Positions 11,554-52,160 of a DNA stretch of 64,000 nt are shown one piece after another (the stretch's first letter is position 1; every line of letters begins with the position of its first letter). Both the position numbers and the translations under genes were made by a program. Source of the DNA: an uncultured Candidatus Saccharibacteria bacterium (GTDB lineage Bacteria > Patescibacteriota > Minisyncoccia > Phycocordibacterales > UBA2100). Under the pieces are notes generated by a model that was not told where the DNA came from, ran no database searches, and saw only the letters and a list, made by a program, of their open reading frames with translations. Location of the stretch: assembly GCA_964512835.1 (NCBI GenBank), contig CAZELA010000001.1, positions 489,372-553,371 of the forward strand. The letters run 5' to 3'.

Positions 11554-11580
11554 AACAGCGCGGTTCCCCCGCGCTGTTTT
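11554..11580. terminator. bidirectional intrinsic terminator at the left edge of the low-GC island
   Basis: aacagcgcg-gttcccc-cgcgctgtt, a 9-bp GC stem followed by a T-run, between convergent genes. Confidence 0.55.
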
Positions 11581-11586
11581 CTCACG

Positions 11587-13827
11587 TTACGAGAAGGCAA
11601 CTGTCCCCTGTGCCTTGTTATAGATATCCAAGCGATTTCTAATCTCGACTCTTGAGACGAGCCAACCTCGCAGCTCACACTGTCTTACGAAATCGTCGAT
11701 TCTGTTCACCCCCTTTATTTCTTTTAATGTGATGACTAGACCAAATTTGAGCGCGGCGTCTCGCTTACTTAATCTTTCTTTGGCTTTAACGCTAATCCCC
11801 CACATACCCGCTCCATATACTTCGCGTGCACCAGGACGGTCGGCGAGTCTTTCGCAGATATGTTTTGTGTTATCCCACTTTCTAAATAGCGTTCTTGCGC
11901 GCCCCTCATATACGTAATGAATTTCTCCGTCGTTAGCGTTCTGGACATTTTTGTCTATGGATTTAATTCCATCACCTTTAACTCGCCCAAAATACACATC
12001 TAACTCAGAGTTGGTGTAATCCACGCCCTGATTACGTGAGCAGCTAGGAAAGTAGCAAAGAGTTGCTCTCGCGACGAAAGGATGCTTCTTATTGTGTATC
12101 GGAACCGGCAGCTGATAAGAGTAAGTTTCCCACTTTTCAGACACACCATTAATTACAAATTTAATTTCATCATCTTTTGACTGAATTACGTCCTCTATTC
12201 TTTGCGGAACAATACCGTGGCCCACGTAAGGCGCGCGTAATTCTTTAGGATCAACTCCATTCCACCCAGCGGCAGCGTCTACAATAAGCGCTTTTGCAAC
12301 CTCTCTTGTAAAGCCCATTATTTCGATTAGAAAAGCGACCTTTCTTGTTATCCAAGGTGCTGCGTAAGAAGTTCCAGACCTGTAAGACTCTCCCAACGGT
12401 GTGCAAACGCGCATGTAAGCGCCCTTGTCACCACCAAAAGTCGAGATGTCCGGTTTATTAAAGAATGAAAGAACCAGCCCCCTGCGCGAGTAAGAGGCTG
12501 GTTCTGCCATGGCGTTCACCGAGTTAACAATAATTCCATTGATGGAATCAGCGGGTGCGCCAATCATTTTTTCAACGTGACCGTCGCTCGCTTTCTTATT
12601 TGTGCCTGCGATAATAAAAATAACGTCGAGTTCGCTCTGGATACGGTCGAGGATAGCGGCTTCTGTAGATACAAAATTTGGGTTAATTTCGTTGTCTGAT
12701 CCAAGTGACACATTCCATACCTTAATGTCAGAATTCGACTCAACAATTTCGCGGATTCGTCGCATTATCGTAAACGCACTGTACCGTCCGTAAGTTGCAA
12801 CGCCAAAATGCCTGACACGGAACCGCCCGCAGCCGTCATCCAGCTCCGGATTGATGGAAGGGCCGTCGACAATAAGCGAAGTCACAGATGTCCCATGATC
12901 AAAATCACGGACGTCTTCGGGTATCTCTTTATCTGTCATTTTTTTGTAGTCGACCCACTCAGAGAAGTATGCGCCTTTATCAAAAAGCGTGTCTATCACA
13001 CCAATAATCGGCTCTCCGTTAGGTGAAGGGATTTTCTTCGTCTTCACTGTCTCCGATTTACTCTGCATCACGTCCTCATAACTTAGTTCAGAGAAATCTT
13101 CCGTTGCCATTGCAATTAGATACGGCGCTTTCGCTGCTAGCAGCGCAATTTCATCTGGATAAAGCAGGATCGTCGTATCGCTAATAATGTTGGTTTTGGC
13201 CACCTCAATACCGAGTGACTGCATCACCTTTGCTAAACTCGCTTCTGTACGATAAACAGTGATGATTGACTGCCCCTTCGTATTTGCACTGTTCTGCGGG
13301 ATCTTGAACCCCTCCACATAGTGCGAATCCACAATTACATTTGTGAAGCCAGTTTTTGAAGTTCCGTAATTCGAGAAATCTACATTTTTCTCTGCTATAT
13401 CAGATATCTCGTCATGCGTAATACGACCGCTGAACTCCGCATTCAATATTTTTATAGCGGTTTCAATTTTTGTAATTGTTTGCTGCAAACATACTTCCGT
13501 TACGTAATGTGTAATTACATGCTTAATCTCGCCCTCATTTCTAAATCGCGCCCCCACTATTGAGTTGTTAACCGGACCATTACCAGAAAAGAACCCTTGA
13601 ATTCTATTGCTCTTTGCGATTACGTCACGATAATACACATCTACTAAACACCCTTTTACAAGATCCCGTTTCGCCCAAAAATCCCTCAGTTTCTGAAGGT
13701 CGCCCTTCAGGGTGGAGAGCTTTTCGGCCGTTACTGGCTGCGCCGTCGCGGGAATATTCCGAGGCCCAGGCTTCGAGACACTCTGTCGCTGCTGAAGGAT
13801 GCCACGGAGCTGGAGTAAATCGTTCAT
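11587..13827 (-). CDS. S8 family subtilisin-like serine peptidase (IetS-like) with unknown N- and C-terminal regions
   Basis: 746 aa with an ordered Asp/His/Ser triad: GVIDTLFDK, DFDHGTSVTSLI (HGT motif) and GTSYAAPWITRKVAFL (GTSxAAP). Low GC (about 40-47%) versus about 60% in the flanks. Its ATG lies 4 nt after the upstream AAA gene stop. Confidence 0.8.
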   Translation of the reverse strand: MNDLLQLRGILQQRQSVSKPGPRNIPATAQPVTAEKLSTLKGDLQKLRDFWAKRDLVKGCLVDVYYRDVIAKSNRIQGFFSGNGPVNNSIVGARFRNEGEIKHVITHYVTEVCLQQTITKIETAIKILNAEFSGRITHDEISDIAEKNVDFSNYGTSKTGFTNVIVDSHYVEGFKIPQNSANTKGQSIITVYRTEASLAKVMQSLGIEVAKTNIISDTTILLYPDEIALLAAKAPYLIAMATEDFSELSYEDVMQSKSETVKTKKIPSPNGEPIIGVIDTLFDKGAYFSEWVDYKKMTDKEIPEDVRDFDHGTSVTSLIVDGPSINPELDDGCGRFRVRHFGVATYGRYSAFTIMRRIREIVESNSDIKVWNVSLGSDNEINPNFVSTEAAILDRIQSELDVIFIIAGTNKKASDGHVEKMIGAPADSINGIIVNSVNAMAEPASYSRRGLVLSFFNKPDISTFGGDKGAYMRVCTPLGESYRSGTSYAAPWITRKVAFLIEIMGFTREVAKALIVDAAAGWNGVDPKELRAPYVGHGIVPQRIEDVIQSKDDEIKFVINGVSEKWETYSYQLPVPIHNKKHPFVARATLCYFPSCSRNQGVDYTNSELDVYFGRVKGDGIKSIDKNVQNANDGEIHYVYEGRARTLFRKWDNTKHICERLADRPGAREVYGAGMWGISVKAKERLSKRDAALKFGLVITLKEIKGVNRIDDFVRQCELRGWLVSRVEIRNRLDIYNKAQGTVAFS

Positions 13828-13831
13828 ATAA

Positions 13832-14884
13832 CTATTCGCTCAGTTCTCGCGATACCTGACTTTTTGATACGCCGGTAAGCACCTCAATCTCTCTTACAGT
13901 GAATCCGCGACTTTGTAAGTGTTTCAAATCGTTTACGCTGTTACCCTCCTCCAGGGATTCATAGAACTTTCGCAAATAATCATATTCGCCATGTGGATCG
14001 CTAAATGCTAGAGACGTTTTAATCAAATTATTCATATCACCCGGAAAAGGTATGTGACTCATCGTTAGCAAAATCTTACGAAAGAGACGCATGTTTCGAC
14101 CTGCAAACTTAAACTTGTTTAGAAAGCGATCAAGTATGGACTCCGCTACTTCAACCAAATCATCTCGAGAGTAGCGATTGAAATTTATAACTGAATCAAA
14201 TCGGCGCAGCACTGCGCGATCAAACTGTTCAGCAAGGTTTGTCGTTGCTATGAGTACAATACTGTCACTCAAAGCATCCAGCCCCTTCAGCATCGAAGAA
14301 GTGACGCGTCCCATTTCCCGTAAATCATTCGCGTTAATTCGATCCAGTGCAATTGAATCGAGCTCATCAAAAAGAATTACGACCTTGTCGGGATGTGGAA
14401 GCTTGTTCAGCTCCTCAAAAACATGCGATAAGTTTTTTGATGTTTGCCCCAATTTACTATCAATAACTGCGTCAAAATCAATCGAAAAAAGGTCGCGATC
14501 TAGTATTCGTGCAATCTGCTTTACTGTCTCAGTTTTTCCGGTACCAGGCGCACCTACGAATAGAAATTTATTAACGCCAACCTTGTGGCCGATAGAGTTT
14601 ATAATCCCAACTATGTCGTTTTTTATCTGGGACGGTAGAGGTAACGACCTGTTTTCAGAGAGATCAATCTGCGTAAAAAAAGGCAAATCGTAATCATTGA
14701 CTTGCGGCACAAATGTGTTCGCGCCGGATAGTAGAGCCATAATGTACTGCGCTAGCTCAGAGTCCCCGCCAGCATCAAAATAACGCGCGATTTCATACGC
14801 CTCGCTCTTAAAGCCCGCATCATTTCTTTCCGCGTAGTATTTAATGAGGTTCAAAATATTTCGTTTTCGAATGTGATCCGACAT
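13832..14884 (-). CDS. classical AAA+ ATPase (IetA-like), possible degenerate C-terminal HTH
   Basis: Walker A GAPGTGKT, Walker B ILFDELD, sensor-1/SRH IATTNL..RAVLRRFD. The C-terminal FTVREIEVLTGVSKSQVSRELSE resembles sigma region-4/LuxR helix-turn-helix. Low GC. Confidence 0.8.
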   Translation of the reverse strand: MSDHIRKRNILNLIKYYAERNDAGFKSEAYEIARYFDAGGDSELAQYIMALLSGANTFVPQVNDYDLPFFTQIDLSENRSLPLPSQIKNDIVGIINSIGHKVGVNKFLFVGAPGTGKTETVKQIARILDRDLFSIDFDAVIDSKLGQTSKNLSHVFEELNKLPHPDKVVILFDELDSIALDRINANDLREMGRVTSSMLKGLDALSDSIVLIATTNLAEQFDRAVLRRFDSVINFNRYSRDDLVEVAESILDRFLNKFKFAGRNMRLFRKILLTMSHIPFPGDMNNLIKTSLAFSDPHGEYDYLRKFYESLEEGNSVNDLKHLQSRGFTVREIEVLTGVSKSQVSRELSE

Positions 14885-14985
14885 GCAGTGATTCTAGCAC
14901 ACCTGGGACAGATCACGGCCTATGTGGGACAAATTTTATCAACATGCACCTGCTCGAATATGTGAACAAGACCCCATAATGAGGC

Positions 14986-15213
14986 ATGCCCAAACAAAAA
15001 CTGATGGAGGAGCTGGTTAACAGGTACGAGGATTCGGCCATTGCCGGCAAGAGTGCCAAAGATGCAGGCGTGAGCTACAGCCCCGCCAGCAAATGCTTCA
15101 CCCTTAAATTCGATGTAGACGAGCACGAGCTAATCGCCAAGTTTCTCGCCGATCACCCGCAAGGCGGCGACGAACTCGAGCAAAACATCAAAAACTGGAT
15201 CAAGAACGGATAA
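14986..15213 (+). CDS. small hypothetical protein divergent from the AAA-S8 operon (possible regulator)
   Basis: 75-aa ORF in a 100-bp divergent intergenic region shared with the AAA gene. Intermediate GC; no recognised fold. Confidence 0.4.
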   Translation: MPKQKLMEELVNRYEDSAIAGKSAKDAGVSYSPASKCFTLKFDVDEHELIAKFLADHPQGGDELEQNIKNWIKNG

Positions 15214-15236
15214 GTTCGGATAGGTATAAAAAGCGT

Positions 15237-15270
15237 CTCCCTCGGCGTGATGCGCACACGCCGAGGGAGG
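15237..15270 (-). terminator. intrinsic terminator oriented for the minus strand
   Basis: ctccctcggcgtg-atgcgcac-acgccgagggag perfect palindrome. On the minus strand it is followed by CGCTTTTTATACC; on the plus strand it is followed by GATAGTCGC with no T-run. Confidence 0.55.
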
Positions 15271-15452
15271 ATAGTCGCTAGGAGCGATCTCCTGCGAGAC
15301 AAGAAGCTTCCCGGCCGCGGGAGGCGTGGCGCGGGCCTAAGGAACGGGCAGTACGTGGGTCCAAAAACCACGCGCGAGTTGGCCGCCCGTCGGGCGCGAC
15401 TCCTGAGCTTCGTCCGCCACCACTCTACCCTGTCGCATCCAAAAAATACATA

Positions 15453-15489
15453 TTCTCACATTCTTGCGAATATGAGAATGTTTTATACC
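15453..15489. promoter_or_regulatory. orphan copy of 37-bp quasi-palindromic operator (ArsR-type 13-2-13)
   Basis: acatattctcacattcttgcgaatatgagaatgtttt matches the site upstream of the ArsR gene at 31377..31413 at about 34 of 37 positions. Half-sites are ATTCTCAcATTCt / cGAATaTGAGAAT. Confidence 0.5.
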
Positions 15490-15490
15490 A

Positions 15491-15548
15491 ACAAAACAAA
15501 ACGGCCGCTCGTAATGAGCGGCCGGTCTGCCTAAAGGCGAAAGATCAG
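15491..15548. repeat. 58-bp direct repeat copy 1 (contains an intrinsic terminator for minus-strand genes)
   Basis: acaaaacaaaacggccgctcgtaatgagcggccggtctgcctaaaggcgaaagatcag is identical to 16294..16351. The hairpin cggccgctc-gtaat-gagcggccg is followed on the minus strand by TTTTGTTTTGT. Confidence 0.85.
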
Positions 15549-16257: not shown

Positions 16258-16286
16258 ATTATACTACAATTTGTGCAATGCGTCAA
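16258..16286 (-). promoter_or_regulatory. sigma70-like promoter of the membrane-protein gene
   Basis: Minus strand reads TTGACG-17 nt-TATAAT. Confidence 0.5.
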
Positions 16287-16293
16287 TCAGCTA

Positions 16294-16351
16294 ACAAAAC
16301 AAAACGGCCGCTCGTAATGAGCGGCCGGTCTGCCTAAAGGCGAAAGATCAG
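16294..16351. repeat. 58-bp direct repeat copy 2 (terminator module after the dapD-like gene)
   Basis: Perfect identity with 15491..15548. Confidence 0.85.
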
Positions 16352-17487
16352 TTCTTGTGGACGGATGTGTTCAGCTCGACAGGTGCAGACGTCGGGCGCA
16401 TGAGCACTTGTCCCGTTTCGCTGTCGCGGATGAACGTCATCCCCGAGTCACCGGAAAGCGATGAGGCTTTTCGCACCGCACCATCGGGGCGCAAGACGCG
16501 CATGCCCGCGGTGATGTAGAGCCCGGCTTCGATACGACAATTGTCGCCGAGCGAAATTCCGGTGCCGCCGTTGGCGCCGATCAGGCAATTGCGTCCGATC
16601 GTGATCACCTCTTTGCCGCCGCCGGAGAGCGTGCCCATGATCGACGCACCGCCGCCGATGTCCGTGCCGCTGCCGACCCACACACCCTGCGAGATTCTGC
16701 CCTCGATCATGTTCGGACCTTCGGCGCCTGCGTTGTAGTTGCAGAATCCTTCGTGCATCACGGTCACGCCTTCGCCGAGATACGCACCGAGTCGCACGCG
16801 ACTCGCATCCGCGATCCGCACACCCGATGGCACCACATAGTCGAGCATCTGCGGTATCTTGTCGCGCGCATGCACCAAAAACGGCCGGCCCATCGTGAGC
16901 GCGTCCATGCGGCGCTCATGCAGATCCGCCTCGCTGATCGGTCCCTCGTTGGTCCACACGTTGTTGGGCAGGACCGCAAAGAGATTGTCGAGGTTGATAC
17001 CGTGCGGCCGCACCTTGCGGTGACTGAGCAAGTGCAGGCGCAGGTACGCATCCGGCACACTCGACGGTCCTTTGTCGCTCTCCTCTTCGGGAATCGCGCA
17101 CGCGACAACGCGCATACGCGTGTTGATCGAGTTTCTGAAAGCGGTATTCCGCAACAGCTTTGCCGCCCTGCGAAGCGCATCCACGTTTCCGTGGTGTTTG
17201 CCGTCGCCTTCTGTCCACTCGAAATATTCGAGCATCTCGCGCACGATATCGAGATTGAGCACGCCCATCGCCTGGTGGTCGCCGGTGTAGTTGAGCACCT
17301 TGGCAAACACGGCGGCGGTGCCATAGTTCTCGCGATGATTCGGCATCGGGTAGAGCGCATCGAGATACGCGCCGTTGCTGTCGACGGTCACGAATCCGAT
17401 ACCGAAAGCGCGCGGCCGCTTGTAGCCGGGCTGCTCCTCGAATTCGGTAACGAACTGTCTGAATGCGATTTGAGTCTGTATCCGCAC
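16348..17487 (-). CDS. dapD: tetrahydrodipicolinate N-succinyltransferase-like (long-form DapD) hexapeptide-repeat acyltransferase
   Basis: 379 aa. The C-terminal left-handed beta-helix (MHEGFCNYNAGAEGPNMIEGRISQGVWVGSGTDIGGGASIMGTLSGGG..IGANGGTGISLGDNCRIEAGLYITAG) and LRLHLLSHRKVRPHG resemble long-form DapD of proteobacteria. Assignment from memory. Confidence 0.55.
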   Translation of the reverse strand: MRIQTQIAFRQFVTEFEEQPGYKRPRAFGIGFVTVDSNGAYLDALYPMPNHRENYGTAAVFAKVLNYTGDHQAMGVLNLDIVREMLEYFEWTEGDGKHHGNVDALRRAAKLLRNTAFRNSINTRMRVVACAIPEEESDKGPSSVPDAYLRLHLLSHRKVRPHGINLDNLFAVLPNNVWTNEGPISEADLHERRMDALTMGRPFLVHARDKIPQMLDYVVPSGVRIADASRVRLGAYLGEGVTVMHEGFCNYNAGAEGPNMIEGRISQGVWVGSGTDIGGGASIMGTLSGGGKEVITIGRNCLIGANGGTGISLGDNCRIEAGLYITAGMRVLRPDGAVRKASSLSGDSGMTFIRDSETGQVLMRPTSAPVELNTSVHKN

Positions 17488-20013: not shown

Positions 20014-20670
20014 TCAATCTATCGTGAGAACACCGAGCTGATAGAGCATGAGCACAAAATCTTTGTCTTGCTCATGATACTGCAGCATCTTCATCTTGAT
20101 CTCGCGGCCGGAGAGTTCCCCGTGACGAGCATTCGGCCGATGCAATGCATCGTACACGTCTGCCATCGCAAGGATGCGACCGTGCTTGTAGATCAGGTGC
20201 TTGGTCTGGTCGGAAAAGTTGTGCAGCGGCCGCGGCATACGCTGCGGATACCCGTTTGCCTGGAACCGATGGTGCCAGAGCATGATCGCGCCCGAAAAAT
20301 CGAATCGGCCGCGGATCATGCGGTAGCCATCGACCACATGCCTGCGCATGAGTCGACTATCCGCATTGGTCCAGTCATCTCGTTTGCCGAGCACTTCGAC
20401 AGGCACCATCACCTTGCCCACGTCATGCAGCGCTCCGGCGAGCAGCAGCGCCCGCCCGTCGAGATCACCGCACGCCGTGCCGATCGCTCGCGCAAGCAAT
20501 GCAACGCGAAGCGAGTGCATGTAGTGCGTGTGGTACACGGGTCCCTTGTCGCGAAGCGGCATCAGGAACATGACGACGTCGTCGATGTCTTCCTGACGAC
20601 ACTGTTCCGCCTTTGCTGCCTGAACCAACTCATACATCAGGCGTTCTTCGGTAGCTGTCTGGAGCTTCAT
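20014..20670 (-). CDS. HD-GYP domain phosphohydrolase
   Basis: HD motif LHDVGKV, second metal site ADVYDALH and a HHRFQANGYPQ (HHx5GYP) signature. Confidence 0.7.
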   Translation of the reverse strand: MKLQTATEERLMYELVQAAKAEQCRQEDIDDVVMFLMPLRDKGPVYHTHYMHSLRVALLARAIGTACGDLDGRALLLAGALHDVGKVMVPVEVLGKRDDWTNADSRLMRRHVVDGYRMIRGRFDFSGAIMLWHHRFQANGYPQRMPRPLHNFSDQTKHLIYKHGRILAMADVYDALHRPNARHGELSGREIKMKMLQYHEQDKDFVLMLYQLGVLTID

Positions 20671-27480: not shown

Positions 27481-27689
27481 GGGAAGACGGAGGCATGTTT
27501 TGCCAGCAGGCAAAACGGCCGAGTCCGGGGCTGGAAAATTTTCGAGCGACGGCGAGAAAATTATTGTGGCCCACAAGACGCTTCACGCCGATTCTCGTTC
27601 ATAAATCCGATTCTCCGTAGAAGGGCTGGAAAATTTTCGAGCGACGGCGAGAAAATTATTGTGGCCCACAAGACGCTTCACGCCGATTC
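27481..27689. repeat. tRNA-trailer structured repeat element, 1.6 tandem copies (Glu locus)
   Basis: Unit contains hairpin gttttgcc-agca-ggcaaaac and hairpin aattttc-gagcgacggcga-gaaaatt, then gtggcccacaag. A second partial copy lies at 27623..27689. Confidence 0.7.
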
Positions 27690-27875
27690 CCTTTCAAGCA
27701 TCCGAAGCCGAGGCGGGCCGGATGACTTTTCAGCAGAAAAGTACCGCTGGCCGCTTCCCCATTGGCTTACAAATCAGTCAGTGAGTCACGTCGATTCTCC
27801 TTTTAACGAATCCGCTATCAGCACAAAAGAAAACACGGCCCTAGTAGGGCCGTGCATTGTTCTTTGGAGTCCAAA

Positions 27876-31065: not shown

Positions 31066-31371
31066 CTACTCATCCTTGGCCGGCTTCAGAGCCGAAAATT
31101 CGTCGATGAATTTCATGAATATCTTACCGTAGCGAGACAGTTTGTGGCGTACATCCCTCCCCTCGTGAACCTTTTCTATAAGCCCGGCGATCGCGAGTCG
31201 ACGGGTGTGTTCGGAGACGGTCTTGAGATTCGCGTTCAGGCCATCTGTTATCGCAATAAGCGAAGCGCCCGGGTTCGAGCGGAGGTAGAACAAAATCCTG
31301 ATCCGCGTGTGATTCGCGACACCCTTGAAGTGACGTTCGAGCTTTTTTGGTCCTTTGGTAGACAGTGCCAT
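31066..31371 (-). CDS. ArsR/SmtB family winged-helix transcriptional repressor
   Basis: MALSTKGPKK...HTRIRILFYLRSNPGASLIAITDGLNANLKTVSEHTRRLAIAGLIEK matches the HTH_20/ArsR fold. Start at 31371 (the track ORF extends upstream artifactually). Confidence 0.7.
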   Translation of the reverse strand: MALSTKGPKKLERHFKGVANHTRIRILFYLRSNPGASLIAITDGLNANLKTVSEHTRRLAIAGLIEKVHEGRDVRHKLSRYGKIFMKFIDEFSALKPAKDE

Positions 31372-31376
31372 ACGCA

Positions 31377-31413
31377 CATATTCCCACATTCTTGAGAATA
31401 TGAGAATGTCTTG
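31377..31413. promoter_or_regulatory. 37-bp quasi-palindromic operator immediately upstream of the ArsR-family gene (autoregulatory site)
   Basis: acatattcccacattcttgagaatatgagaatgtctt begins 6 bp from the start codon; 13-2-13 inverted repeat. Confidence 0.55.
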
Positions 31414-31430
31414 CAACGAAAACGACCGCA

Positions 31431-31976
31431 TCACGGGGATGCGGTCGGTTGGTGCCTTGCAAAGAGCGCGTCGCACGCATCACGAGCAATTTTCTCTGAC
31501 AGGGCCGCGGTCGTTGCGATATTCCTCCAGTGATCGGCGTCGAGCACGACGTGTCGCTTCGCCGCCGGATGGCGAGTGCCCCACAAGACGACGCGATCGT
31601 GACTACTTTGAAACGTGACGATCGGTGCGGGCAGATCGCCGCGCGCACCGAGTACCCGCGTATATCCCACATAGTTATGCGGCGAATTTATGGTCACAAT
31701 GCCGACTACCGGCGTATTGCGCAGCCGCTGAGCGATCGCACAGGCGATCACCCCACCTAGACTGTGTCCCACGATGAGCGATTCCATCCCATCGTCATAG
31801 CGCTGCACCAGTGCATCGCGGTAGCGAATCATGCGCGGTATATCGATGGGCAGCATGCCTCGCTCTTCGGTATTTTGAATGTCCGCGATCGGTGCACGGT
31901 ATGCGATCGCGCGCGCAACGACAGGCACAACCGGGTTGTCGAAGCACCATACGCCGTTGACTCCCAATAACCTCAT
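31431..31976 (-). CDS. alpha/beta hydrolase (lipase/esterase-like)
   Basis: 181 aa with a GHSLGG nucleophile elbow. Confidence 0.6.
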   Translation of the reverse strand: MRLLGVNGVWCFDNPVVPVVARAIAYRAPIADIQNTEERGMLPIDIPRMIRYRDALVQRYDDGMESLIVGHSLGGVIACAIAQRLRNTPVVGIVTINSPHNYVGYTRVLGARGDLPAPIVTFQSSHDRVVLWGTRHPAAKRHVVLDADHWRNIATTAALSEKIARDACDALFARHQPTASP

Positions 31977-40296: not shown

Positions 40297-40340
40297 AGCG
40301 GATATACTAGCAAATTTTCATGTATGTGGGTCATATGCAG

Positions 40341-40606
40341 TTTATTTGTGGGTCACCGATAATTTCCTCGCCGCCGCTCGGAAATTTCTCTGACCACGGC
40401 TCGCCCGTTTTGCGTGCTCGCAAAACATGGCTCCGCCCGTCCACAAACCGAAAAAGTCTGCCGCAGGGCAGTTTTTATTTGTGGGTCACAGATAATTTCC
40501 TCGCCGCCGCTCGGAAATTTCTCTGACCACGGCTCGCCCGTTTTGCGTGCTCGCAAAACATGGCTCCGCCCGTCCACAAACCGAAAAAGTCTGCCGCAGG
40601 GCAGAC
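40341..40606. repeat. tRNA-trailer structured repeat element, 2 tandem copies (Ala-GGC locus)
   Basis: Units at 40341..40471 and 40472..40606 are about 97% identical. Each ends with the terminator hairpin gtctgccgcagggcagac plus a T-run. Confidence 0.8.
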
Positions 40607-40619
40607 TTCTTCGTGTTTG

Positions 40620-42132: not shown

Positions 42133-42615
42133 ATGGTTATCGTACCCATATGGATGCGCGTGATTCTCGCCGCCGGCATCTGCTTCGCCTCCGGCGCTAT
42201 TGCCGCGCTGTATATGACCAGTCAGTCGCTTGGCTACTTTGGATCGCTTGATCGTCCCCTCCTGTTTGCAATGCCGATACCGGTCATCTTTTTTGCACTG
42301 GTTGTTACCTACGCAATCATTTCGATCGCATCGGCACTCATGTGGATCCACGATCCGCGCCCGTGGGATTTTCGCGGCTGGGTTCCGTTGTTTTTTACAC
42401 ACCTGCTTGTACAGGTGGGATGGCTCATACTCCTATTCGCATACAACGTCGTATTTGTCGCGATGCTGATGGCCTTCGTACTCGCGACCTATGTTTTTAT
42501 ATTGACGGCAGCGGCGTGGGAGCGCAGCAAGATCGCGTTTTGGCTTTTGCTCGTATATCTCGCATGGACGCTCTACGCGCTCGGCATGAACATCGCCGTC
42601 TGGGGAGTTAACTAG
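42133..42615 (+). CDS. TspO/MBR family membrane protein (second paralog)
   Basis: 160 aa with 5 TM helices; Trp-rich motifs (LMWIHDPRPWDFRGWVPLFF, AWTLYA). Confidence 0.55.
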   Translation: MVIVPIWMRVILAAGICFASGAIAALYMTSQSLGYFGSLDRPLLFAMPIPVIFFALVVTYAIISIASALMWIHDPRPWDFRGWVPLFFTHLLVQVGWLILLFAYNVVFVAMLMAFVLATYVFILTAAAWERSKIAFWLLLVYLAWTLYALGMNIAVWGVN

Positions 42616-42616
42616 C

Positions 42617-42846
42617 ATTGTGGGCCACAAATATTTTAGTCGCCGTCGCGACTAAAATTTTCTGACCACGGCGCGCCCGTCCACAAACCGAAACAGTCTG
42701 CCGCAGGGCAGGTTTTTATTTGTGGGTCACCGATAATTTCCTCGCCGCCGCTCGGAAATTTCTCTGACCACGGCTCGCCCGTTTTGCGTGCTCGCAAAAC
42801 ATGGCTCCGCCCGTCCACAAACCGAAAAAGTCTGCCGCAGGGCAGA
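42617..42846. repeat. tRNA-trailer structured repeat element, 1 degenerate + 1 full copy (Ala-CGC locus)
   Basis: The 42712..42846 copy is about 98% identical to 40472..40606. The 42617..42711 copy keeps the outer motifs but replaces the central hairpin with ttttagtcgc-cgtc-gcgactaaaa. Confidence 0.8.
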
Positions 42847-42860
42847 CTTTTTCGTGTTTG

Positions 42861-47502: not shown

Positions 47503-48756
47503 TTATTCGGTAAGATGCTCGATCACTTTGCTGTCTGCGAGGAAGGACGACGTGCCGGTCTTTCGGTCGGTCACTTCGACGCCGCCCTGTGCCATTGTCT
47601 TTTCGGACACGACGAGGCGCGTCGGAATCCCGATCAACTCCGCGTCAGCGAACTTCTCGCCTGCACGCAGGTCACGATCGTCAAATAACACTTCGATGCC
47701 GTGCTCTACCAACTCGTCGTAGAGGCGATTCGCCTCAATAGCAACGTCCTCGTTGCCGCCGGAGATCATCACGAGATGAACAGCAAACGGAGCGACGGCT
47801 TTGGGCCACACGATTCCCTTCTCGTCGGAGAATTTCTCAACGAGCACGCCCATGAGTCTCGTGATACCGATTCCGTACGAACCGATCCAAATCGGCGTGT
47901 CGTTTCCTTCGGCGTCCTTTGCTGAAAGTCCGAGATCGGTCGCTTTCTGCTGTCCGAAGTTAAAGATATTACCGACCTCCGCCGTGTTCACTTTTTCAAG
48001 CTCATCGCGCGACACACCGAGATCCTTGAGCGTCTCATCGTTCAGGACCTCTTCATTGATTGCAATACCCTTGGCACGATTAATGTATGTGATGTCCTCG
48101 CCCGCCTCACAGACGGTCTGGAATTCATGGCTGAACTTCGTGAATGCGCCGCCCGCCGCAAAGGTGATGTACGTATCGTCTCCGATACCCAATCGCTTGA
48201 ACACATTCATATATGCCGGCTTCGTCGCTTCGTAGTACGCGAGGTGCGTTTTCTCGTCGGCATTGAACGAGTACATATCTTTCATGACGAATTCGCGACC
48301 GCGCATGATGCCCGACTTCGCACGTTTTTCGTTGCGAAGCTTTGTCTGGAACTGATAGACCGAAATCGGCATATCCTTGTAGCTCGATATGTAGTTCTTC
48401 ATCATGTCTCCGATCGGCTCTTCGTGAGACCAACCGAACCCGACCTCGCCCCCGTCTTTCAGTTTTGATTTGAACCACACATCAACCGTTTCGTCGTCCC
48501 AGCGATGTGTGCGCTCCCACAAATCCTTACGCTGCAGCGCAGTCATAATTATTTCTTGCGAACCGATTGCATTCATTTCTTCCCGCGCAATCTGTTTTAT
48601 TTTTTCTAGCACACGCAGCCCGAGCGGCAAGTACGCATACACACCGGCCATCTCCTTATGAATATACCCGGCACGAATGAGCAGCTGTGCGTTTTTTGCG
48701 ACCTCGTCCTTGGGCGCCTCTTTGCGGGTTTTGGTGAAGAGCTGAGATTGGCGCAT
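47503..48756 (-). CDS. proS: prolyl-tRNA synthetase, short form lacking the INS editing domain
   Basis: Class II motifs and an anticodon-binding domain; about 417 aa. Confidence 0.85.
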   Translation of the reverse strand: MRQSQLFTKTRKEAPKDEVAKNAQLLIRAGYIHKEMAGVYAYLPLGLRVLEKIKQIAREEMNAIGSQEIIMTALQRKDLWERTHRWDDETVDVWFKSKLKDGGEVGFGWSHEEPIGDMMKNYISSYKDMPISVYQFQTKLRNEKRAKSGIMRGREFVMKDMYSFNADEKTHLAYYEATKPAYMNVFKRLGIGDDTYITFAAGGAFTKFSHEFQTVCEAGEDITYINRAKGIAINEEVLNDETLKDLGVSRDELEKVNTAEVGNIFNFGQQKATDLGLSAKDAEGNDTPIWIGSYGIGITRLMGVLVEKFSDEKGIVWPKAVAPFAVHLVMISGGNEDVAIEANRLYDELVEHGIEVLFDDRDLRAGEKFADAELIGIPTRLVVSEKTMAQGGVEVTDRKTGTSSFLADSKVIEHLTE

Positions 48757-51597: not shown

Positions 51598-52160
51598 AGC
51601 CCAACGACGTTGAAAAATTCGCGCTCAAGGTGACCCGCGGTGTCGGCTCGCCGGTCTCTATCGTTGTTCACTCGATCCTGTTCGTCGTGAGCTTTGTCGT
51701 TTCTGCGGCCGGGTGGATATCTCTGGATCGAATGCTTCTCATATTGACGACCATCGTGTCACTCGAAGCGATCTATCTCGCGATATTCATTCAGATGACG
51801 ATCAACATCCAGAGCAAATCACTCGAGGCGGTTGAAAAAGACATCGACGAGATTCAAAAGGACGTCGAGGAGATCTCCGAAGACGTGGAGGAAATTCAAG
51901 AGGACGTGGAAGAAATTTCCGAGGACGTCGGAGAAATTTCCGAAGATGTTGATGAGATTCAGAAAGATGTCGATGAACTCCAGGAGGATGTGGAAGAAAT
52001 TTCCGAGGACGTGGAAGAACTCTCCGAAGAGGATGCCGCGGCCATTCACGAGGAAGCGCAAGAAGATGCCCGAAAGGCCGAACAGAAGCGCACGCTCGAG
52101 ACAATCCAAACCGACCTACGGAAACTCATGGAAGATATCGCAAAGCTCCAAAACAAATAA
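51591..52160 (+). CDS. DUF1003 membrane protein with acidic heptad-repeat coiled-coil tail
   Basis: Two N-terminal TM helices (SIVVHSILFVVSFVV...TIVSLEAIYLAIFIQM) are followed by nine EDVEEIS-type heptads. Confidence 0.55.
   Translation: MAQPNDVEKFALKVTRGVGSPVSIVVHSILFVVSFVVSAAGWISLDRMLLILTTIVSLEAIYLAIFIQMTINIQSKSLEAVEKDIDEIQKDVEEISEDVEEIQEDVEEISEDVGEISEDVDEIQKDVDELQEDVEEISEDVEELSEEDAAAIHEEAQEDARKAEQKRTLETIQTDLRKLMEDIAKLQNK
51840..52028 (+). repeat. intragenic tandem repeat, 9 x 21 bp
   Basis: Units gacgtggaagaaatttccgag and variants encode DVEEISE heptads. Confidence 0.8.

Follow-up and report, generated by a model that had tools for sequence, protein, structure and literature searches.

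A second copy of an ArsR/SmtB-like repressor's operator beside a candidate small RNA in a Saccharibacteria genome

A 64-kb stretch of DNA from an uncultured Candidatus Saccharibacteria bacterium (GenBank assembly GCA_964512835.1, contig CAZELA010000001.1, positions 489,372 to 553,371; this whole stretch is called the window below) carries a 37-bp quasi-palindrome at two places. One copy lies just upstream of a gene for a small ArsR/SmtB-like regulator. The other, which we call the orphan copy, lies where no gene starts and is followed on the minus strand by a G+C-rich stretch that ends in a hairpin. The locus raises the question of what a repressor's binding site does away from the repressor gene. 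An earlier note on this DNA proposed that the orphan copy is an operator placed to drive a repressor-controlled small RNA, and our analysis supports that interpretation in part. Of greatest interest is a finding made along the way, namely that the palindrome and the regulator occur as a pair across Patescibacteria, with further copies of the palindrome in frame within genes.

The orphan copy and the candidate RNA unit

A pattern match with the degenerate 37-mer gave exactly two hits in the window, at the coordinates in Table 1, and none in 100 shuffles. The earlier note had also counted two copies, at coordinates that were 5 nt and 1 nt too high. No third copy of the 28-bp core was found in the window, even when up to five mismatches were allowed. 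The two 37-mers are identical at 34 of 37 positions, non-palindromic flanks included (AAAAC or AAGAC on one side and ATGT on the other). The core belongs to the family ATTC-N4-ATTC-N4-GAAT-N4-GAAT, and in the orphan copy its arms mispair at one T.G and at one further pair adjoining the 2-nt centre. Both window copies fall in a rare arm-mismatched class, with the mismatch in the same orientation. This shared orientation and the shared flanks suggest that one copy of the 37-mer in the window was derived from the other. That the orphan is a second copy of the regulator's operator is well supported by the comparative data below, to which the earlier note had no access.

Table 1. Coordinates of the features at the orphan locus and at the regulator gene (positions in the window).
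Feature	Position	Strand	Remarks
Intrinsic terminator (13-bp stem 15269..15237, U-run 15232..15228)	15228..15269	-	G+C-rich hairpin followed by U-run
Candidate non-coding RNA body	15271..15447	-	177 nt, 64% G+C, no credible ORF
Orphan copy of the 37-mer operator/promoter module	15448..15484	-	exact pattern match
Putative extended -10, TGaGAATAT, overlapping the right arm	15450..15458	-	inferred; the same TGnGAATAT + 6 nt geometry precedes the regulator ATG
28-bp core palindrome, 13-2-13 inverted repeat	15452..15479		ATTCTCATATTCG-CA-AGAATGTGAGAAT on the minus strand
Intrinsic terminator that ends the 221-aa gene before the module	15492..15524	-	insulates the module from upstream transcription; part of a 59-bp direct repeat
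101-aa ArsR/SmtB-like winged-helix regulator gene	31066..31371	-	probably leaderless; no cysteine
Reference copy of the 37-mer	31376..31412	-	ends 4 nt upstream of the regulator ATG
Intrinsic terminator of the upstream hydrolase gene	31423..31447	-	confines the regulator promoter to 51 nt holding the 37-mer

That the regulator belongs to the ArsR/SmtB proteins, as had been proposed, was borne out at the profile level. A profile of 23 orthologs matched the structures of HlyU (1.8e-8), CadC, ArsR, CzrA and SmtB. All 23 family members matched NF033788, below its cut-off (37 bits against a cut-off of 55), and on the window regulator Pfam HTH_5 scored 21.7 against a cut-off of 22, with HTH_24 and MarR above cut-off. 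Family members are 88-101 aa long and form at least 4,386 sequence clusters, mostly from Patescibacteria and with generic names only; no description of the palindrome or of the regulator family was found in the searchable literature. A cysteine that is common in the orthologs (CN.KT) is alanine in the window regulator, and inspection of its sequence for metal-ligand residues revealed no cysteine and no alpha5-type pattern. Metal sensing is unsupported because the window regulator lacks cysteine, and nothing was found in favour of the metal- or stress-responsive control that the earlier note had envisaged. A six-frame scan with the regulator profile gave further weak matches (6-10 bits) at 47840-47960, 17120-17240 and 20360-20480, which may be other winged-helix genes or chance.

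At the regulator gene, the 13-2-13 repeat lies over the gene's own promoter stretch and is of the 12-2-12 type. The position just before the gene start had been described correctly, except that the spacing to the ATG (31371, minus strand) is 4 nt and not 6. The upstream minus-strand terminator confines the regulator promoter to the 51 nt from the terminator stem to the ATG. The sole promoter candidate in those 51 nt, TGgGAATAT, is separated from the ATG by 6 nt and overlaps the right arm of the palindrome. Since TGaGAATAT and the flank ATGT are both present at the orphan copy, a transcript start near 15443 (15443-15440) on the minus strand is predicted there by analogy. The hexamer GAATAT matches TATAAT at three of six positions, the predicted orphan start falls within a T run, and a promoter scanner found no sigma-70 promoter at either copy of the 37-mer. 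An alternative promoter just upstream of the orphan palindrome, TGGTATAAA, was rejected as it is not kept in the sister strain described below.

The two copies also share their setting. In each case, a strong minus-strand intrinsic terminator is followed 10-27 nt later by the 37-mer and then by the downstream unit. At the orphan locus, this results in two consecutive minus-strand terminators ~230 nt apart without a credible ORF between them. The second of these is the hairpin of the earlier note, and it proved real: on the minus strand, 13 pairs (10 of them G-C) are followed by ACGCTTTTTA, with the U-run CGCUUUUU on that strand only, whereas on the plus-strand side GATAGTCG follows, with no T-run. 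The terminator is thus oriented for a minus-strand transcript.

The stretch between the terminators is G+C-rich and devoid of a convincing ORF, as had been claimed. In the direction of the transcript it has only the 33-codon frame already named in the earlier note and one of 8 codons; coding readings of the 33-codon, 72-aa and 95-aa frames were rejected, and Pfam gave no match for two ORFs, one on each strand, that overlap the body. An Rfam search, which the earlier note had suggested as a check, gave no match for the body at gathering or permissive thresholds; its only hits were tRNAs and terminator look-alikes. A covariance model of the body (R1) found only itself in the window and in 1.27 Mb of palindrome-bearing loci. 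Comparison by BLAST of the body and all 598 palindrome flanks among themselves revealed no shared non-coding family; what they had in common was the regulator gene and a small number of orthologous genes. A heuristic screen of other genomes for a site followed by a short non-coding stretch and a terminator gave 19 mixed candidates with no common sequence. The fold z-score of the body was -2.07.

The orphan locus is arranged in the same way in a sister strain (GCA_964633425, locus L255). Between the strains, the 37-mer differs at 1/37 positions (2.7%) and the body at 7/172 (4.1%, or 96% identity in the sister strain). Other non-coding segments diverge by 5.8-13%, dapD by 6.3% at all positions and ~15% at third codon positions, and three upstream genes by 11-31% at third codon positions. 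The region of the second hairpin is far more diverged (17/50, 34%), yet five pairs of its stem have changed on both sides and are kept by these compensatory double changes, and both strains have its U-run on the minus side. The MFE fold of the window sequence alone accommodates all seven substitutions in the body (four lead to G.U pairs and three are unpaired; null probability ~0.05), and the MFE fold of the sister strain's body differs from it. By codon position, the substitutions number 3, 3 and 1, so there is no period of three. Against the yardstick of the adjacent 75-aa gene, in which 5/76 third positions (~6.6%) have changed, the divergence of the body is not significantly low, and constraint on the body is for this reason not secure. 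Outside the window, a homolog of the body was found in the sister strain only, the nearest dapD relatives being just 57-58% identical; by these comparisons, the candidate RNA is confined to one species-level lineage.

The 75-aa ORF (14986-15213, plus strand) has no family match and is divergent from the promoter region of a defence island. It is a real gene, with all five differences between the strains at third codon positions. The island itself, a low-G+C segment at 11579-14986, is an IetA/IetS defence system (IetS 11587-13827, IetA 13832-14884; PADLOC E-values 1e-62 and 1.5e-44), and the same spot in the sister strain (L255 11225-14197) has AbiL/HEC-01-like genes. This defence hot spot is located between the 75-aa gene and a 214-aa gene. 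The candidate unit had been placed at the edge of the defence island; it does adjoin the hot spot, but the variable segment includes neither this unit nor the 75-aa gene, and both are part of the core genome.

On its other side, the orphan locus abuts one end of a perfect 59-bp direct repeat (15490-15548 and 16293-16351) that comprises a stop codon and an intrinsic terminator and brackets an 803-bp unit. This unit has a canonical promoter (TTGACG-17-TATAAT, 16286..16258, minus strand) and a 221-aa membrane ORF, is present in both strains, and looks like a cassette inserted at the terminator of dapD. Elsewhere in the window, a repeat unit of ~133 nt (40338-40610, 42610-42852 and 27520-27710) has four copies adjoining tRNA genes, each ending in a terminator (CTGCCGCAGGGCAG and a T-run), and two partial inverted copies follow another tRNA; it has no Rfam match and may be a multicopy small RNA or MITE family. 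At 51817-52030, a repeat with a 21-nt period and at least seven units encodes an acidic heptad-like repeat.

Our best single reading of the orphan locus, which we adopt tentatively and with somewhat less than even confidence, is that the orphan 37-mer drives a repressor-controlled small RNA of ~215 nt. The orphan would duplicate the stretch that serves the ArsR/SmtB-like repressor gene as both operator and promoter, its 13-2-13 core being the kind of repeat that ArsR-type dimers bind. In this lineage, the right arm and the flank ATGT would supply an extended -10 (TGnGAATAT). At the regulator gene, this element would put the start of a leaderless mRNA on the ATG. At the orphan copy, transcription would begin near 15443 on the minus strand and yield a non-coding RNA ending at the second hairpin and its U-run. 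A repressor dimer on the palindrome would cover the -10, so that its own gene and the RNA would both be off, and repressor and RNA would be under common control. The minus-side U-run terminator, kept by compensation, seems to need a minus-strand transcript with its start beyond the upstream terminator. The two terminators, the compensated hairpin and the near-identity to the regulator's promoter stretch all favour such an independent transcript. The proposal of the earlier note keeps its operator, its terminator and its non-coding stretch; on the other side, there is no Rfam match, no homolog in 1.27 Mb of other palindrome-bearing DNA and no canonical sigma-70 promoter.

The palindrome and its regulator family in Patescibacteria

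The core, with 23 bases specified, was sought in public metagenome contigs and in one genome per species, and each scan gave at least 120 contigs. In all, more than 240 contigs contain the palindrome. Most of them belong to Patescibacteria (Parcubacteria, Paceibacterota, Saccharibacteria, Kaiserbacteria and others), and some palindrome-bearing MAGs, few in number, have other labels, which may be real or binning errors. The orphan in the window is a second copy of its regulator's operator, as had been stated, but the core is not confined to this genome and the orphan is, strictly, not alone. The element is 28-34 bp long and nearly invariant across hundreds of Patescibacteria genomes. Its core consensus is ATTCTCACATTCT-NN-AGAATGTGAGAAT, extended to RAY-ATTCTCACATTCT-NN-AGAATGTGAGAAT-RTY, in which free variation is limited to the two central bases. 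The arms were found to co-vary at core position 8/21 in an unbiased sample (C/G 87, T/A 33), with 16 mismatched copies against ~57 expected under independence. A strand-specific RNA hairpin was rejected as the purpose of the palindrome, since the flanks show as many A.C as T.G mismatches and perfect palindromes dominate the unbiased sample.

Loci that were chosen by the palindrome alone proved to be rich in orthologs of the 101-aa regulator. Approximately 25 distinct orthologs were found among the 120 metagenome loci and 19 more among the 120 genome loci, so that about one fifth of the fetched loci carry one. Most of these genes have a palindrome that begins 20-75 nt ahead of the called start codon, and in most ortholog loci a second palindrome overlaps the stop codon or lies within ~20 nt of it. 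In many loci, ATTCTCACATTCTTAA encodes the C-terminal TFSHS and the stop codon of the regulator. Neighbouring palindrome copies form a cluster of spacings at 314-403 nt, and bracketed regulator genes are seen, for example, at L124 1981-2323, L088 3109-3523 and L092 8907-9268. A paralogous regulator is associated with a variant palindrome, ATTC(G/T)CTTATTCG..CGAATAAG(C/A)GAAT. The regulator gene in the window has lost its 3' palindrome. Since loci fetched by the palindrome alone hold orthologs, most of them bracketed by two copies, the palindrome is well supported as the operator of the regulator. This agrees with the view in the earlier note that the 37-mer is a genuine operator-type inverted repeat. 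That note had also proposed a search for other copies of the 37-mer; the palindrome is indeed multicopy across Patescibacteria, yet it is linked to the ArsR/SmtB-like regulator and occurs only twice in the window.

The positions of promoter motifs relative to the palindrome are consistent with this role. Of 20 regulator genes, 16 have a -10-like hexamer, often preceded by TG, with its end 5-9 nt ahead of the ATG, compared to 5.4 of 20 in shuffles. This spacing makes the regulator genes look leaderless, with the palindrome over the -35 region and the spacer. In 566 flanks, an outward-facing TGnTAnnnT was found within 20 nt of the palindrome end in 79, against a background of ~5-8 per 10-nt bin, and inward-facing extended -10 motifs were not enriched. 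The enrichment of outward motifs suggests that the palindrome behaves as a promoter-proximal operator in many places.

However, a bare copy of the palindrome is not proof of a promoter, since ~18% of unique copies (56/302) are inside coding genes, in the long open frames of housekeeping genes that include those for TsaD, Dus, TruB, DinB, UvrC, Fmt, YchF, Tgt, MnmA, TrmD and GltX. These copies use only two stop-free frames, of which one encodes HSHILxNVRM (42 copies) and the other FSHSxE(C/Y)ENV (14 copies). Examples from other Patescibacteria are L019 400-428 (dus), L102 1717-1745 (truB), L106 1421-1449 (tsaD) and L098 135-163 (tgt). A 28-bp operator is unlikely to arise by point mutation within a coding gene, and for this reason the in-gene copies recall dispersed palindromic elements. 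The overall density in related genomes is ~1 copy per 30 kb, with ~40 extra copies in 687 kb of flanking DNA. A comparison of neighbours revealed no common function among the genes beside palindrome copies, and a coherent regulon was rejected as these genes are unrelated in function. A phage origin was likewise rejected, as none of 2.9 million viral contigs carries the core, and no transposase was found beside palindrome copies.

These properties raise the possibility that the orphan is simply one of the many scattered copies of the palindrome, either an insertion or the scar of a palindrome-regulator-palindrome cassette. It would then perhaps be bound by the regulator but have no promoter, and the 170-nt stretch beside it would be transcribed from elsewhere or act at the DNA level. 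We regard this as rather unlikely, even though the wide spread of the core, the extra copies in flanking DNA, the in-frame copies, the co-varying arms and the unrelated neighbouring genes are all in keeping with it, as is the typical position of the regulator gene between two copies, much as REPs bracket a RAYT gene. This is because the copies are mostly intergenic and abut outward extended -10 motifs, the core is absent from viral contigs and has no adjoining transposase, and the orphan itself has the non-palindromic flanks of the regulator-promoter copy along with the same mismatch. In addition, the compensated terminator with its minus-side U-run requires a minus-strand transcript.

A wider proposal, which we consider doubtful, would combine dispersal with a promoter at the orphan locus. 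The palindrome would be a dispersed element of Patescibacteria with a dedicated ArsR-like binding protein, its unit being palindrome-regulator-palindrome. Solo copies would have been spread or left behind, including in frame in tRNA-modification and DNA-repair genes, and some would have been recruited as repressor-controlled promoters, one of them here driving a new, lineage-specific small RNA.

Other explanations of the orphan locus

A repressor-controlled small RNA, the reading that we prefer, has also to be weighed against explanations in which the body is not an RNA gene. One is that a second regulator gene, on the plus strand, has decayed and left its 3' part as the body and its 3' palindrome as the orphan, in which case there would be no RNA gene or the relic would since have become one. 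Across the wider family, the stop codon is indeed overlapped by the second palindrome, and the loss of the window regulator's own 3' palindrome would fit. A plus-strand frame at 15331-15424 aligns to positions 61-93 of the family profile (AGLrNgqYvG...L...F), that is, to its C-terminal third, and the alignment ends 27 nt before the palindrome in the orientation that a cassette predicts. Its score is reached by 0.05-0.1% of dinucleotide shuffles; that score is, however, only 3-5 bits, and 0.8-1.7% of real 211-nt windows of this genome score as well. Moreover, the N-terminal motif is weakly matched by a different frame of this DNA, and the two matches cannot both hold. At the DNA level the body does not resemble the regulator gene, the supposed gene lacks its 5' two-thirds as well as its 5' palindrome, and a neutral relic would leave the minus-side U-run and the low divergence of the body unexplained. 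We therefore find this origin quite unlikely.

We think it improbable that the region is a spacer without a product, whose hairpin stabilises or terminates the mRNA of the convergent 75-aa gene and whose apparent constraint reflects low local divergence. The hairpin does lie 24 nt past the stop codon of that gene, in which synonymous divergence is low (5/76 third positions), and the fold z-score of the body is modest. Nevertheless, the hairpin has no plus-strand T-run after it in either strain and keeps its minus-side U-run, and its own 34% divergence indicates that local divergence is not uniformly low. That the transcript instead encodes a small protein is very improbable indeed: the 33- and 8-codon frames are open in both strains, and the family's regulator genes look leaderless, but three of the four substitutions in the 33-codon frame change the amino acid, those across the body lack a period of three, and neither a ribosome-binding site nor a family match is present.

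Of the elements of the preferred reading, a small RNA under the control of the repressor, the analysis shows the duplication of the 37-mer, the link of the palindrome to the regulator family, the terminators with their conservation and the lack of coding signal. Promoter activity at the orphan copy, binding of the repressor, and the existence and a role of the RNA are inferred.

Significance and relation to known systems

Patescibacteria have very few transcription factors and, to our knowledge, regulation in them is almost unstudied. It is notable that a repressor family of more than 4,000 clusters bears generic names only, that its 28-bp site is nearly invariant across the group, and that copies of the site are both at promoters and in frame inside essential genes. 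The palindrome and regulator would offer a testable handle on a global control or genome-organising system of Patescibacteria, for which the orphan copy is a simple test case, with one operator, one short RNA and one repressor. If real, the small RNA would be among the first candidate regulated small RNAs in Patescibacteria.

The closest parallels are the autorepressors of the ArsR/SmtB type (SmtB, CzrA, CadC, HlyU), which have 12-2-12 operators over their own promoters. Like them, the window regulator is a small winged-helix protein, taken as dimeric, with profile similarity to the family and an inverted repeat with a 2-nt centre that overlaps its own promoter. It differs in having no cysteine and no evident metal site, and in scoring under the curated cut-offs. 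Its operator differs too, in being nearly invariant across a superphylum with tens of copies per genome, in usually bracketing the gene on both sides, and in occurring inside coding genes. The candidate RNA unit recalls Fur-controlled RyhB and PrrF, in that an operator copy overlaps the putative promoter of a short, terminator-capped non-coding unit and this unit would share its regulator with protein-coding targets; in contrast to RyhB and PrrF, the candidate here is confined to a single species-level lineage.

Two further systems resemble the palindrome rather than the RNA. As with HrcA and CIRCE, a long inverted repeat is conserved across very distant genomes along with a dedicated, here putative, repressor, although CIRCE precedes a coherent chaperone regulon and the genes beside the palindrome are unrelated in function. 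The co-variation of the arms and the bracketing of a gene by two copies recall REP/RAYT and the Rickettsia palindromic elements (RPE), with which the palindrome shares the form of a short dispersed element, a dedicated gene between two copies, and in-frame copies in housekeeping genes. This combination of multiple, gene-flanking and in-frame copies is seen in other genomes, the window having just two copies. The flanked gene here encodes a DNA-binding protein of 90-100 aa without a catalytic domain, in contrast to the Y1 transposase of REP/RAYT, and the element is 28-34 bp long compared to 100-150 bp in RPE. Unlike both REP and RPE, which are species-specific, the palindrome is conserved at phylum-level distances.
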